Part shown: positions 48,476-54,830 of the stretch, one piece after another
Layout: each line of letters opens with the position of its first letter
Numbering within the stretch: the stretch's first letter is position 1
Translations under genes and position numbers: made by a program
Notes under the pieces: model-generated
Told to the model about the DNA's origin: nothing
The model's database searches: none
Seen by the model: only the letters and a program-made list of their open reading frames with translations
From: an uncultured Methanosarcinales archaeon
Lineage (GTDB): Archaea; Nanobdellota; Nanobdellia; Woesearchaeales; JACPBV01
Reading direction: 5' to 3'
Assembly (NCBI GenBank): GCA_964577685.1
Contig: CAZNZT010000001.1
Location: 47,978 to 111,977, forward strand
Length of the DNA stretch: 64,000 bases

Positions 48476-50326
48476 ATGATAGTCAAGCCAAAGGGAAGAT
48501 ACCTTATAGAGATATCTCAAGAGGTAATGAATCCTATCGGTGGAGTGTACACTGTCATAAGGTCTAAAGTTAAAGAGATGGTTAGATACTATGGTAAAAA
48601 CTACTTTTTGATAGGTCCTTGTTCCTCATTGTATCCAGTAGAATTTAAGGAAGAAAAGCCACCTAGAGATATCAAGGCTGTTTTTGATGGGTTATCAAGA
48701 CTAGGGATTATATGTTATTATGGGAGATGGATTGTTGAAGGTAGACCACAGGTGTTTCTGGTTGATTCTTCCAAACGAATAAATGAGTTAAATGAAATAA
48801 AAGACAATTTAACAAAAAAATATAATATTGACTTTAGATTATCAAATAATGAGAAAACAAACAAAGAAATAGACGAGCTTATTGTTTGGGGAGATTCAAC
48901 AACAATCTTAATTGAAAAATTAATACAATTGAATAGATTCAAAAATAAGATAGGTGTAATCCACCTTCATAATTCAGGTATTCCCGTTCTACCTTTAATT
49001 GCCAAGTTAAGAGACAAAAATGCGAAAGTTGGTTTAGTACTAACCTTACATGCTACCAGCCTTGGGAGAAAGATACTCATGAATAAAGAAAACCTTTACT
49101 CTGAGATAAAAAAAGGACTCAAAAATAAATGTGAGGTAAGTAAAAATAGAGTATCTCTTTACGGACAACCAAGCATATTTCTTCATCAATTAGAAAAACT
49201 AGGTGCTAAAAGAGCTGATGTTGTAACTGCCGTTAGTGGATTAACATCAAAAGAAGCAAGATATATTCTTGGTAGGGAGGCTGATGTTGTAACGCCGAAT
49301 GGTGTTGACCTTAGTTTTTTTCCTACTCTTGAAGATAGAGCCATAATCCACAGTATTTCAAAAGAAAAAATACATAAATTCCTAAATGCTTATTTTTTAC
49401 CATATTATCCAGTTGATGTCAAGGATTCATTATTGTTTTTTAGTTCTGGAAGATATGAATTGATAACAAAGGGATATGAGATTTTTCTTGAGGCGTTAGG
49501 AAAACTCAATAATATTCTAAAGAAAAAAAATAGTAAGAAGAATATATTCGTTTTTTTGTTTATTATGAAAAAAAACAAAGAACCAAAAGAAGAAGTGATA
49601 AGAAATCTTTCTTTATATTGGACTATTGAACAAGAGGTTAATAAGGAGATGCTATATATAAAGAACAAAGTAATGGGGGCGTTAATCCATGGTTATGATT
49701 TAAAATATAAGCATATATTTGATGATGCATTCTTGATAAATACAAAAAAGATTATCCAAAAACTATTCAATAAAAAAAATAAATTACCACCTGTCTGCGC
49801 CCATAGGGGATTGGATAAAGGGGATTCTTTATTGGAGTTGTTGAAAAAAAACAAACTTGAAAACAAAAAGAGTGATAAGGTCAAAGTTATATTTTATCCT
49901 GCTCCGGTTTCTGTATCTGATGGTCTATTGTCAATGGACTATTTTTCCGTTATTTCTGGTATGCAACTTGGGGTATTTCCTTCGCTATATGAACCATGGG
50001 GATATACAGCACTAGAAACTGCCCTGCACGGTGTTATGGGTATTACAACAGACGCAGCAGGATTTGGAAGGTTTATTCAGAAGATAAACAAAGGAAAAAA
50101 AGAAGGAGTGTTTGTATTAAAAGTGCTAAATAGAAAAGAAAAAGATATTACTAATGAATTAGTTAAAATGATGTACAAGATAACAAAGCTTTCTAGAGAG
50201 GAAAGGATAAAAAATAAGATAAAGGCATATGAGCTTGCTACTCTTACAGATTGGAAGAGATTTGCTAAATATTATATAAGGGCGCATAATTTGGCAATTG
50301 AAAGATGCAAAAAAAGATTACATTAA
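48476..50326 (+). CDS. GT3-type glycogen(starch)-synthase-like glycosyltransferase, paralog A
   Basis: 616 aa. 'YLIEISQEVMNPIGGVYTVIRSKVKEM' matches the GT3 'EVANKVGGIYTV' N-terminal signature. 'FPSLYEPWGYTALE' matches the GT-B catalytic E. Confidence 0.6.
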   Translation: MIVKPKGRYLIEISQEVMNPIGGVYTVIRSKVKEMVRYYGKNYFLIGPCSSLYPVEFKEEKPPRDIKAVFDGLSRLGIICYYGRWIVEGRPQVFLVDSSKRINELNEIKDNLTKKYNIDFRLSNNEKTNKEIDELIVWGDSTTILIEKLIQLNRFKNKIGVIHLHNSGIPVLPLIAKLRDKNAKVGLVLTLHATSLGRKILMNKENLYSEIKKGLKNKCEVSKNRVSLYGQPSIFLHQLEKLGAKRADVVTAVSGLTSKEARYILGREADVVTPNGVDLSFFPTLEDRAIIHSISKEKIHKFLNAYFLPYYPVDVKDSLLFFSSGRYELITKGYEIFLEALGKLNNILKKKNSKKNIFVFLFIMKKNKEPKEEVIRNLSLYWTIEQEVNKEMLYIKNKVMGALIHGYDLKYKHIFDDAFLINTKKIIQKLFNKKNKLPPVCAHRGLDKGDSLLELLKKNKLENKKSDKVKVIFYPAPVSVSDGLLSMDYFSVISGMQLGVFPSLYEPWGYTALETALHGVMGITTDAAGFGRFIQKINKGKKEGVFVLKVLNRKEKDITNELVKMMYKITKLSREERIKNKIKAYELATLTDWKRFAKYYIRAHNLAIERCKKRLH

Positions 50327-50382: not shown

Positions 50383-51381
50383 GTGGAAATGAATGTCGAA
50401 GAATGGTTTAATAAATATAAGTTCAAATGTCAAAGTTTTTCAAATATAAAAAGACTAGTTGAACTTAAAAATAAACAAAAGTTGAAGATAAGTTTGTGTA
50501 TTCCTACCTATAACGAAGAGGCAACTATAGAGAAGATTGTTAGTATTATAAAATCAAAGTTTATAGACAGATATAAACTATTAGATGAGCTTGCAGTTAT
50601 AGATTCTGGCTCTAGTGACAAAACAAGAGAATTAGCAAAAAGGGCTGGTGCTGATGTTTATCTTGCATCTGAAATCCTAAAAAAAGAGGGGCATCACAGA
50701 GGTAAAGGTGAAAACCTATGGAAGGCTCTTTATGTGCTTAGTGGAGATATAATATGTTGGATTGACGGAGACATAAAAAATATACATCCTAGGTTTGTCT
50801 ATGGTTTAGTCGGTCCATTGCTTACACATCCAAAGATTGGATTTGTAAAACCATTCTATAAAAGACCCCTTAAGATAGGAGACAGACTACAACCGCTTGG
50901 GGGAGGCAGAGTAACTGAATTAACGATAAGACCTTTATTCAATCTCTTTTTTCCTAGGCTAAGCGGATTTATACAACCACTTAGTGGGGAAGGAGCCGGG
51001 AGGAGAAGCATTCTTGAAAGAATCCCGTACTTCACTGGCTATGGCGTTGAAACTGGAATGTTGATTGATATAGTAAAAAAATTCGGTTTAAGATCAATAG
51101 CTCAAGTAGATTTACTAACTAGGGTACACAGGAATCAAGAGCTTTCTAGCCTAAGCAATATGGCTTTTGCTATTTTACAGGTTTTTTCAAAGAGGGCAAA
51201 TACACTTGGAAAACTTGTTCTTGTTAGAGGGATAAGAAAGAAATACAGAATAATTGAAAGAAGGAATGGGGAATATATCTTAAAGAAAAAGATTATATCT
51301 GAAGTGCAGAGACCACCGATGATAACTTTAAAACAATACAGAAAAAAATTCAAAAAAGATCCAGTATGGTTATATGTATAG
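50383..51381 (+). CDS. GT2/GT81-like glucosyl- or mannosyl-3-phosphoglycerate synthase candidate
   Basis: 332 aa, 'ISLCIPTYNEEATIEKIV...LAVIDSGSSDKTRELAKRAGADVY...WIDGDI' (DxD). Pairing with an MpgP-like phosphatase supports the call. Confidence 0.5.
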   Translation: MEMNVEEWFNKYKFKCQSFSNIKRLVELKNKQKLKISLCIPTYNEEATIEKIVSIIKSKFIDRYKLLDELAVIDSGSSDKTRELAKRAGADVYLASEILKKEGHHRGKGENLWKALYVLSGDIICWIDGDIKNIHPRFVYGLVGPLLTHPKIGFVKPFYKRPLKIGDRLQPLGGGRVTELTIRPLFNLFFPRLSGFIQPLSGEGAGRRSILERIPYFTGYGVETGMLIDIVKKFGLRSIAQVDLLTRVHRNQELSSLSNMAFAILQVFSKRANTLGKLVLVRGIRKKYRIIERRNGEYILKKKIISEVQRPPMITLKQYRKKFKKDPVWLYV

Positions 51382-52180
51382 AAAATTTGTTATTTTTACA
51401 GATGTAGATGGGACTTTAATAGACTCAGAAAGATATTCCTGGAAGGATGCTAGTCAGGCGGTTTCGTTAATAAGGAAAAGAAAGATTCCTTTAGTGTTAT
51501 GTTCAAGTAAAACAAAGAGAGAAATAGAGGTTCTGAGAAAAGAGATAAAAAATAAAAACCCATTTATAGTAGAGAATGGAAGTGCTATATTTATTCCAAA
51601 AAACTATTTTGATTTTGACTTCGATTATAGTTACAAAAAAGGAAGATATTATGTTATTCAACTGGGAGAGAAGTACAATAGAATAATAAAAGCATTATGG
51701 AAAATAAAGAAACTAAAAGGGATAAAGGTAAGTGGTTTTAAGGATATGTCTGTTAAGGATTTAAGCAAAGATTGTGGGTTGACTATAAAAAAAGCTCGTT
51801 TGGCCAAGAAAAGAGAATTTAGTGAACCTTTTATATTGAAAAGAGGAAATATAGAGGATATAAAAAAAGCTATGAATAAGATGGGATTAACATATATGAA
51901 AGGCAGAAGGTATCATTATATAATGGGGGATTGTGATAAAGGGGAAGCAACAAAAATACTTATAGGCCTTTTTAAAAGAAAGTATAAAAACATTGTTTCT
52001 GTTGCCTTAGGAGATAGTTTTAGTGACCTACCTATGCTAAAAAGCACAGATATAGCGATTATAGTTAAGATGCAAAAAGATAAGTATGATAGTAAATTAC
52101 TGAAATATGGTTTTTTAAAAAAAGCGAAAGGAATAGGTCCAAAGGGATGGAATTCGACTATTCTTGATTTAATTAAATAG
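51374..52180 (+). CDS. Mannosyl/glucosyl-3-phosphoglycerate phosphatase (HAD-IIB, YedP/MpgP family)
   Basis: 268 aa, 'VIFTDVDGTLIDSERYSWKDASQAVSLIRKRKIPLVLCSSKTKREIE' closely matches the MpgP N-terminus. Overlaps the synthase by 8 nt. Confidence 0.6.
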   Translation: MYRKFVIFTDVDGTLIDSERYSWKDASQAVSLIRKRKIPLVLCSSKTKREIEVLRKEIKNKNPFIVENGSAIFIPKNYFDFDFDYSYKKGRYYVIQLGEKYNRIIKALWKIKKLKGIKVSGFKDMSVKDLSKDCGLTIKKARLAKKREFSEPFILKRGNIEDIKKAMNKMGLTYMKGRRYHYIMGDCDKGEATKILIGLFKRKYKNIVSVALGDSFSDLPMLKSTDIAIIVKMQKDKYDSKLLKYGFLKKAKGIGPKGWNSTILDLIK

Positions 52181-52189
52181 CAGGTCATT

Positions 52190-53902
52190 ATGAAAAAAAT
52201 AAAAGCAAAGGCAGATTTCCTGATTGAAGTATCCTATGAGATAGTTAAACAACTCGGTGGAATTCATACTGTTATTAAAACAAAAGCACCTTTTATAAAG
52301 AAATATTATGGAGAAAATTACCTAGTCATTGGGGTTTATACTAAAGAAGGGATTAAAAAAAGATTTAAAGCGAGAAAACCAAGTAAGGAGATAAGAAAAC
52401 TTTTTTTGGAATTAAAAAATGAGAAGATACTAGCGCGCTATGGTACTTGGCTTGTAAAGTCTAATCCAAAGGCGATTCTTATTGATACTAGAAAATTAAG
52501 AAAAGACAAAAAAATAAAGAGTATTATAAAAAAGGAATATGGCATTGGACTTTCTAGTAAGGACTATTATCAAAGAGATTCCTTTCTTTTCGGATATGCT
52601 GCCGGGAGATTGATATATGAATTAAGAAAACTAAATTTTCTTAAGAACAAAAAGATAGTCGTTAATGCTCACGAATATATGAGTGGTCTATGTTTATTAT
52701 ATTTAAGAAAACATAAAGCAAATTTGCCATTGGTTTTTACAACCCATGCTACTGTTCTTGGAAGAACTATTAGTTATAAGGGTGAAAATATACAAAAGAC
52801 GATACTAAGACTAAGCAAAAAAGGAAAACATGAGCATGAAAAAAAAGTTAAGGAATATATAAAAAAGATAAACAAAATAACATATACGAAGCATTTAGTT
52901 GAGAAAGCTTGTTCAAAAAAAGCTGATGTTTTTACTACGGTTAGCGAAACAACATCAAAGGAAGCGGCTTTTTTGTTAGGAAAAAAAGCAGACATCATAA
53001 CACCGAATGGATTAGAAATTATAAAACATCCTAGTATAGATGAACAGCTGGCAATAAACTACAAATCAAAACAAAAAATTTATAGATTCCTTGAAGCATA
53101 TTTTTATCCGTATTATTGGATAAACACAAAAGACTCCTTATTATTTTATACCTCTGGGAGAAACGAGATATATACGAAAGGATATGACCTATTTTTTGAG
53201 GCTTTGAACAAACTAAACTCAAGACTAAAAAGAGAGAAGTATGAAGGAAACATATTTGTATTCTTATTTATAATGATCAGAAAAAAAAGAATAAAGAAAA
53301 TCATTAAGAAAACATTATATGCTTACAGAAAGAACAAAAAGCTATTAAAAAAGATAAAACTTACTAAAAATCCTCCAAACTGTGCATTTGATACTAGAGG
53401 TGATAATACTGTTTTGATGTATCTTAAAAAAAATAAACTTGAAAACAAAAAGAGTGATAAGGTCAAAGTTATATTTTATCCGGCACCTGTGGAGGAGAAT
53501 GATGGATTACTTTCAATGAGTTACAAAGAGATAATCTCTGGAATGGACTTAGGCATTTTCCCGTCTCTATATGAACCATGGGGGTACACCCCGCTTGAAT
53601 CTGCTGCTATGAGTACAATCACCATAACAACAGACATAGCAGGATTTGGAAGGTTCATAAAGGAAAAAAGTGATCAAAGAAAAAGACAGGGAATAATTGT
53701 TTTAAGGACCAAGAGAAAAACTAGATTGGAGATTATTGAAAATTTGGCTAAGACAATGCAGGAAATTGTTAATATGCCAAAAGAAAAAAGGCTAAAAATG
53801 AGGATTGATGCCAATAAACTATCAGGCTTCGCAAATTGGGAGGAGTTCTCTAAGAATTATATAAAAGCCCATAACCTTGCTCTTGAGAAACATAAGAAAT
53901 AA
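52190..53902 (+). CDS. GT3-type glycogen-synthase-like glycosyltransferase, paralog B
   Basis: 570 aa, 'FLIEVSYEIVKQLGGIHTVIKTKAP', 'FPSLYEPWGYTPLE'. Shares an identical 23-aa / 47-nt patch with paralog A. Confidence 0.6.
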   Translation: MKKIKAKADFLIEVSYEIVKQLGGIHTVIKTKAPFIKKYYGENYLVIGVYTKEGIKKRFKARKPSKEIRKLFLELKNEKILARYGTWLVKSNPKAILIDTRKLRKDKKIKSIIKKEYGIGLSSKDYYQRDSFLFGYAAGRLIYELRKLNFLKNKKIVVNAHEYMSGLCLLYLRKHKANLPLVFTTHATVLGRTISYKGENIQKTILRLSKKGKHEHEKKVKEYIKKINKITYTKHLVEKACSKKADVFTTVSETTSKEAAFLLGKKADIITPNGLEIIKHPSIDEQLAINYKSKQKIYRFLEAYFYPYYWINTKDSLLFYTSGRNEIYTKGYDLFFEALNKLNSRLKREKYEGNIFVFLFIMIRKKRIKKIIKKTLYAYRKNKKLLKKIKLTKNPPNCAFDTRGDNTVLMYLKKNKLENKKSDKVKVIFYPAPVEENDGLLSMSYKEIISGMDLGIFPSLYEPWGYTPLESAAMSTITITTDIAGFGRFIKEKSDQRKRQGIIVLRTKRKTRLEIIENLAKTMQEIVNMPKEKRLKMRIDANKLSGFANWEEFSKNYIKAHNLALEKHKK

Positions 53903-54693: not shown

Positions 54694-54830
54694 TGGGCCT
54701 AGGAGGATTCGAACCCCCGACCTTAAGCCAATCTAGGTTCTCACCTAAGATTTTCAGCTGACCTCCTATTTAATAGAAGGCTGCCGCTCTTTTTGGCAAA
54801 CCCATTGTGTCCAAACTGAGCTATAGGCCC
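54694..54830 (-). tRNA. Intron-containing tRNA gene (137-nt precursor). Probable tRNA-Arg with anticodon UCU. Three non-exonic inserts are inferred.
   Basis: The minus-strand read is GGGCCTA-TA-GCTC-AGTTTGG[20 nt]A-GAGC-G-GCAGC-CTTCTA[14 nt]A-GCTGA-[35 nt including about 30 extra]-GGGGG-TTCGAAT-CCTCC-TAGGCCC-A. The acceptor stem is a perfect 7 bp and the T-arm is canonical. Exons sum to 73 nt. Confidence 0.6.

Follow-up and report, generated by a model that had tools for sequence, protein, structure and literature searches.

Interparalogue conversion of duplicated protein genes is known from the archaeal chaperonin paralogues. Among the settings in which ectopic gene conversion is described in prokaryotes is the concerted evolution of rRNA operons (PMC6002687). 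In Sulfolobus acidocaldarius, recombination intermediates have been shown experimentally to be resolved by local excision and refilling, giving short and even discontinuous tracts (PMC3367456). In the polyploid Haloferax volcanii, efficient intermolecular gene conversion equalises the genome copies, according to the outline given in PMC11276520.

Here, we describe a pair of GT3 glycogen synthase paralogues, A and B, that share a patch of 47 identical nucleotides within otherwise diverged genes. We consider this patch to be the product of a recent, short-tract and non-reciprocal copy from one paralogue to the other, by ectopic gene conversion or a template switch (probability about 0.82). So understood, the locus would be like other cases of ectopic interparalogue conversion in being non-reciprocal and confined to one genome, with a local drop in synonymous divergence and sharp edges; within the segment, moreover, the two paralogues resemble each other more than they resemble their own orthologues. 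It would be unlike the usual cases in the length of the tract (47–56 nt) and in the divergence of the partners, which share 57% DNA identity and are saturated at synonymous sites. Unlike genes undergoing concerted evolution, A and B show a single patch and not an ongoing homogenisation of the whole gene. The scale of the patch is that of the short-patch tracts of S. acidocaldarius (PMC3367456), which hence provide an archaeal precedent; however, the donor there was nearly identical transformed DNA, whereas here the partners are diverged chromosomal paralogues of an uncultivated DPANN-type archaeon with a small genome, known from sequence only. Conversion in H. volcanii, as outlined in PMC11276520, is also archaeal but takes place between allelic chromosome copies and not between diverged paralogues.

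The window, that is, the whole 64 kb stretch of DNA that was analysed, carries both genes on the forward strand. The features relevant to the patch are the following.

48476..50326, + strand: gene A, GT3 glycogen-synthase homologue, 616 aa (Pfam PF05693, E = 2e-108)
49844..49899, + strand: maximal tract in A, 56 nt with one mismatch, from the start of an A8 run to a TATCC end (repeat family D1)
49853..49899, + strand: patch copy in gene A, likely acceptor (exact match to 53435-53481)
52190..53902, + strand: gene B, GT3 glycogen-synthase homologue, 570 aa (Pfam PF05693, E = 2e-100)
53426..53481, + strand: maximal tract in B, partner of 49844-49899
53435..53481, + strand: patch copy in gene B, likely donor (exact match to 49853-49899)

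Both proteins match PF05693 over its full length, with 364 bits for A and 337 bits for B against a cut-off of 27. In a comparison with PDB entries, residues 4-611 of A align with the glycogen synthases of Caenorhabditis elegans, human and yeast (E = 1e-83 to 1e-76). By these matches A and B are members of the GT3 glycogen-synthase family, with a predicted glucan synthase activity. GT3 synthases occur in DPANN archaea, and the archaeal GT3 enzymes are enzymatically uncharacterised (PMC11046441). The closest database proteins of A and B are named Nanoarchaeota and Woesearchaeota; in the window, which has 33% G+C, the neighbouring genes include those for topoisomerase VI A and B and a GCD14-type tRNA methyltransferase. 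Taken together, these features assign the window to a DPANN-type archaeon.

In a codon-aware alignment, A and B are 45% identical at the protein level and 57% identical at the DNA level. An earlier note on this DNA had described the remainder of the two proteins as only moderately similar, which agrees with these values, and the alignment of the whole genes reveals no uniformly high nucleotide identity that would make the patch unremarkable. Each paralogue has orthologues of its own: those of A (P0002-P0024; 605–644 aa) are 44–54% identical to it and those of B (P0121-P0135; about 565 aa) are 58–66% identical to B. By BLASTP, A is 41% identical to B and the other A-clade proteins are 41–47% identical to B, so A is not nearer to B than its relatives are. 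On this evidence A and B are old duplicates belonging to distinct orthologue clades. A recent duplication or a gene-wide concerted evolution of the pair is thereby ruled out, and the patch is not a relic of a recent duplication.

The two types of protein also differ by about 45 residues located upstream of the patch (approximately 49590-49740), which are present in A-clade proteins, A included, and absent from B and from all B-clade proteins. The stretch missing in the B-clade proteins is present in the alignment with C. elegans glycogen synthase, and we take it to be the helical insertion of the tetramer interface in the eukaryotic enzymes. Lacking it, the B-type enzymes may oligomerise differently.

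Direct reading of the sequence and a pattern search both confirm that positions 49853-49899 equal positions 53435-53481, 47 nt without a mismatch. Upstream of this core, 49844-49851 equals 53426-53433 and forms the A8 run, which leaves one mismatch (C at 49852, T at 53434) in a tract of 56 nt. The earlier note had proposed about 60 nt with one mismatch; the single mismatch holds for the 56 nt of 49844-49899 but not for 60, since the four additional positions 49840-49843 contain three mismatches to B. Downstream, identity ceases at 49900, and the next four codons (PAPV) are all synonymously different between the two genes. Both copies are in frame and in register, at homologous columns of the alignment of these two PF05693 homologues of one genome. 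The distance between them, previously given as 3.5 kb, is indeed short and measures 3582 nt (3 x 1194). As had also been noted, they encode an identical peptide, in total 23 residues (LKKNKLENKKSDKVKVIFYPAPV).

An exhaustive k-mer comparison of both strands found the 47-nt pair to be the only exact repeat of at least 20 nt in the window. With up to three mismatches allowed, the pattern search for the 47-mer returned its two sites in the window and none in 100 dinucleotide shuffles. A dispersed repeat or mobile element was considered and rejected: the window holds no third copy within three mismatches and no other exact repeat of at least 20 nt, and the 47-mer was not found in the viral contig collection.

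Outside the tract, the two genes are saturated at synonymous sites. Nei–Gojobori estimates for A against B are pS 0.725 (dS approximately 2.5) and pN 0.37 outside the tract, compared with pS 0.12, corresponding to one synonymous difference, and pN 0 within 49844-49899. In a sliding scan of 20 codons, pS reaches its minimum of 0.20 in the window starting at 49832, which covers the tract, and this is the only value below 0.30. Across the whole alignment, 127 columns with identical residues use the same codon, against 116 expected from independent draws with genomic usage. As the patch contributes 17 identical codons to these 127, synonymous sites elsewhere are fully randomised. The synonymous saturation that the earlier note had assumed is thus borne out by the estimates made along the alignment.

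The simplest alternative to copying is coincidence, in which a conserved peptide combined with AT-biased codon usage would have produced 15 consecutive identical codons (KLENKKSDKVKVIFY). The peptide is indeed highly conserved, typical members of the A and B clades already sharing about 17 of the 23 residues, and the run contains several preferred codons (AAA, GAT, TTT and TAT). Besides, the patch was chosen from a scan of many windows, which entails some selection effect. However, the run also includes non-preferred codons: GTC, used for 8% of Val residues, AGT (23% of Ser), CTT (21% of Leu) and AAG twice; GTC and the two AAG codons in particular are difficult to attribute to bias. Given the identical residues, the probability of the 15-codon run is 1.1e-5.

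We evaluated the match over the whole gene by simulation, with the protein alignment fixed and the codons at identical-residue columns redrawn according to genomic usage. The longest in-register exact match in the simulated pairs was 15 nt on average, with a 99th percentile of 28 nt. A length of 47 nt was attained in none of 20,000 simulations with the codon usage of the window and at a frequency of 1e-4 with the usage of the two genes themselves, and an analytic bound across all possible positions amounts to 8e-5. For this protein alignment and codon usage, the 47-nt identity therefore exceeds chance (P about 1e-4 or lower).

Other GT3 gene pairs allow an empirical comparison. Four other genomes (L083, L085, L087 and L172) carry two GT3 genes of similar divergence within a few kilobases, and the longest in-register exact matches of these pairs are 11, 13, 20 and 13 nt, respectively. 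In 73 further GT3 gene pairs the maximum was 32 nt, reached only in orthologues with 76% protein identity, and pairs with at most 50% protein identity never exceeded 23 nt. Neither the four co-resident pairs nor the 73 other comparisons thus contain a comparable patch, and none of these 77 pairs surpasses 32 nt. Taken with the codon statistics, this makes coincidence very unlikely. A recurrent hotspot at the patch site is likewise unsupported, as nothing was seen there in the four other co-resident pairs.

The amino acid identity itself is less surprising. In an alignment of 45 proteins of the A and B clades, DKVKVIFYPAPV is nearly invariant in both clades and is preceded by L.K..L.N, and the patch region aligns with a 24-residue stretch of C. 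elegans glycogen synthase. Since the peptide is conserved in the family, a long run of identical residues is to be expected here. Judged by this alignment, much of the 23-residue identity is ordinary family conservation and the anomaly consists of the synonymous identity only.

A sequence element acting at the nucleotide level, such as a structured RNA, a recoding signal or a site recognised by a small RNA or DNA-binding protein, might also have kept the two copies identical, and the earlier note had listed this as its second explanation. The exactness of the identity even at synonymous sites is what such an element would produce, and A and B, as they flank one gene cluster, plausibly require a coordinated expression. 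In about 55 distinct homologous genes of archaea and bacteria, however, the codons of the motif D[KR]VKV[IV][FY]YP vary freely (GAT/GAC, AAA/AAG, all four GTN, ATA/ATT/ATC, TTT/TTC and TAT/TAC). These genes represent all loci that were fetched and include the B-clade orthologues at L083, L085 and L087 and the A-clade orthologues at L088 and L089; neither clade shows nucleotide conservation in the region, and no nucleotide constraint common to the homologues accounts for an identity that, synonymous sites included, greatly exceeds both that of the flanks and the chance expectation.

Nor does the patch have the properties of a structured RNA. Folding of both copies with their flanks, on both strands, gave z values of +0.08 to +1.03 relative to shuffled sequences, that is, no excess of structure, and a search of the whole window against Rfam gave no match at the patch, its only match being a tRNA at 54694-54830. 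At the 5′ edge of the A copy, the A8 run generates an in-frame A_AAA_AAC heptamer, which might be read in favour of recoding. This candidate was rejected, for the −1 frame (AAA CAA ACT TGA) stops within four codons past the A-run and there is no downstream structure. There is furthermore no third or complementary copy of the patch in the window, and no match to it in the viral contigs. In view of the varying codons, the z values not below zero, the lack of an Rfam match and the −1 stop codon, an element of this kind is unsupported and we regard it as extremely unlikely. Least probable of all the readings is a lineage-specific cis-site, for instance a target of an antisense or small RNA or of a DNA-binding protein, that would co-regulate both paralogues around the glucosylglycerate genes described below; such a site would escape notice because only distant homologues are available.

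The possibility of an assembly artefact concerns chiefly the B copy. Two other contigs originate from the same population: L001 (ENA), matching the window along 14.5 kb at 99.99% identity, and L002 (JGI, Ga0190360_1003017), matching it along 8 kb at 100%. Both contain gene A with its two flanks and the identical patch, so that three assemblies, produced by two pipelines, agree on the A copy. L002 and L001 terminate within gene B, at 52734 and 52970, respectively, i.e. 544 and 780 nt from the start of B. These early ends, which may reflect low coverage or strain variation in B, lie 465–700 nt upstream of the B patch and do not coincide with it. No other contig was found to carry the exact B protein, and the B copy of the patch is seen in one assembly only.

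These facts would be compatible with an assembler or an error-correction step having placed the patch into one of the paralogues, as the B copy rests on a single contig, two assemblies of the same population break within B and no further record of the exact B protein was found. A mis-join, on the other hand, would switch the paralogue identity across the junction, whereas the flanks of each copy remain paralogue-specific: the downstream flank is A-like in A (SVS..D.F) and B-like in B (EEN...K). Because this holds on both sides of the patch, an artefact would require two compensating switches within 56 nt. A de Bruijn assembler, moreover, needs reads containing the junctions to link the B flanks with the patch, and the distance of the contig breaks from the B patch, together with the agreement on the A copy, also speaks against this explanation, which we find highly improbable.

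A probable direction of the copy from one paralogue to the other can be read from the residues of the two clades. Position-specific profiles were made for each clade without the window's own proteins, and protein A was scored residue by residue against both. Overall, A is strongly A-like, with +675 bits over 560 columns. Its most B-like window of 11 residues is KNKLENKKSDK, with −7.4 bits, and this window lies in the patch; just downstream of the patch, the residues of A are again strongly A-like (S +7.0, V +6.4). The flanks of the patch in B are strongly B-like, and the patch peptide of B fits its own subclade, as seen in P0124 (LKKNKLFNKQSDKV) and P0125 (LRKNKLFNKETDKVKVIFYPAPVEE). The patch is accordingly incongruent in clade within A; with the peptide conserved in either clade, this signal is a modest one. 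P0024, an A-clade protein, natively has KKNKLEN, and no second GT3 gene was seen on its contig. Copying probably proceeded from B as donor to A as recipient, a direction to which the approximately 7 bits lend modest support.

We propose that one paralogue served as the template by which a homologous stretch of the other was overwritten. The two genes are co-oriented on the same chromosome, with their copies of the patch 3582 nt apart, and the copied tract would have measured between 47 and 56 nt. The earlier note had put forward recent local gene conversion as its first explanation, and the saturation outside the patch, its sharp boundaries, the lack of comparable patches elsewhere and the clade-incongruent segment support it. 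The nearest relatives of A and B are 54% and 66% identical, respectively. As no sister lineage with an unconverted copy was found among them, the event is read from a single genome. Two protein-based scans of sequence collections returned, among the matches listed, only relatives with at most 44% identity. A pattern with degenerate codons for the patch peptide gave no match in metagenome_contigs, a weak negative result: L126 (Ga0190360_1002073), from the same sample as the patch-bearing L002, is included, so that L002 is either absent from the collection or was missed by the pattern.

At the patch site, where the peptide was already strongly conserved, the two genes were probably more alike in DNA before the event than anywhere else along their length. 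Two routes may be envisaged. In the first, a recombinase-mediated strand invasion would have been followed by short-patch repair of the heteroduplex. With an identity of only about 57%, the flanks speak against a long heteroduplex and are a poor substrate for classical homologous recombination, and the molecular route is uncertain for this reason. In the second, the copy would have arisen by template switching with the A8 run and TATCC serving as microhomologies. Microhomology-mediated template switching occurs in replication or repair and would account for a short patch between poorly homologous sequences that is bounded by A8 at one end and TATCC at the other. Classical conversion and template switching would have the same outcome in the sequence, and the A/B patch is accompanied by no rearrangement or insertion.

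Only about three residues of A would have been altered by the event. With so little change to an almost identical peptide, the copying was most likely selectively neutral and without a function of its own. The A/B patch would then be ordinary interparalogue gene conversion, unusual only in the shortness of its tract and the divergence of its partners. It would indicate that templated patching can act on partners that are only about 57% identical. Such patches could mislead searches for functional elements embedded in coding sequences, and these GT3 genes may yield locally mosaic trees when their phylogeny is reconstructed by segments. Otherwise the case matters little: it is clean and statistically solid, and it presents neither a new kind of system nor a new question.

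Several observations concern the surroundings of the two genes. The interval between A and B (50383-52180, + strand) contains two genes, one predicted by its score to encode a glucosyl-3-phosphoglycerate synthase (NF010496, 363 bits, cut-off 262) and the other a phosphatase of the MPGP family (TIGR01486, 223 bits, cut-off 165). The pair is predicted to constitute the glucosylglycerate pathway. The same pair of GT2 and HAD genes adjoins an A-clade GT3 gene in L172 (11837-13616), and in L088 (7876-14101) an A-clade GT3 gene adjoins genes for an HAD phosphatase, a glycerate-kinase-like MOFRL protein and an MGS_GT protein. Mycobacteria use glucosylglycerate as the primer at the reducing end of an α-1,4-glucan. 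DPANN archaea are without a recognised glycogenin (PMC11046441). The linkage to GT3, the lack of a recognised glycogenin in DPANN archaea and the mycobacterial primer hint, by analogy, at a possible role of glucosylglycerate in priming or capping the glucan that these GT3 enzymes would make.

The tRNA reported by Rfam on the reverse strand (54694-54830) scores 40 bits; model positions 1-71 are spread across 137 nt, a length that would require an intron of about 65 nt. In contrast, ARAGORN detected no tRNA anywhere in the window.

A third kind of GT3 gene, here called C type and encoding about 594 aa, was observed a few kilobases from a B-type or an A-type gene in L083, L085, L087 and L172, accompanied by NTP-transferase and GT4 genes. 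The occurrence of such pairs in several genomes indicates that paired GT3 synthases are common in the group and that the type of pair varies from genome to genome.
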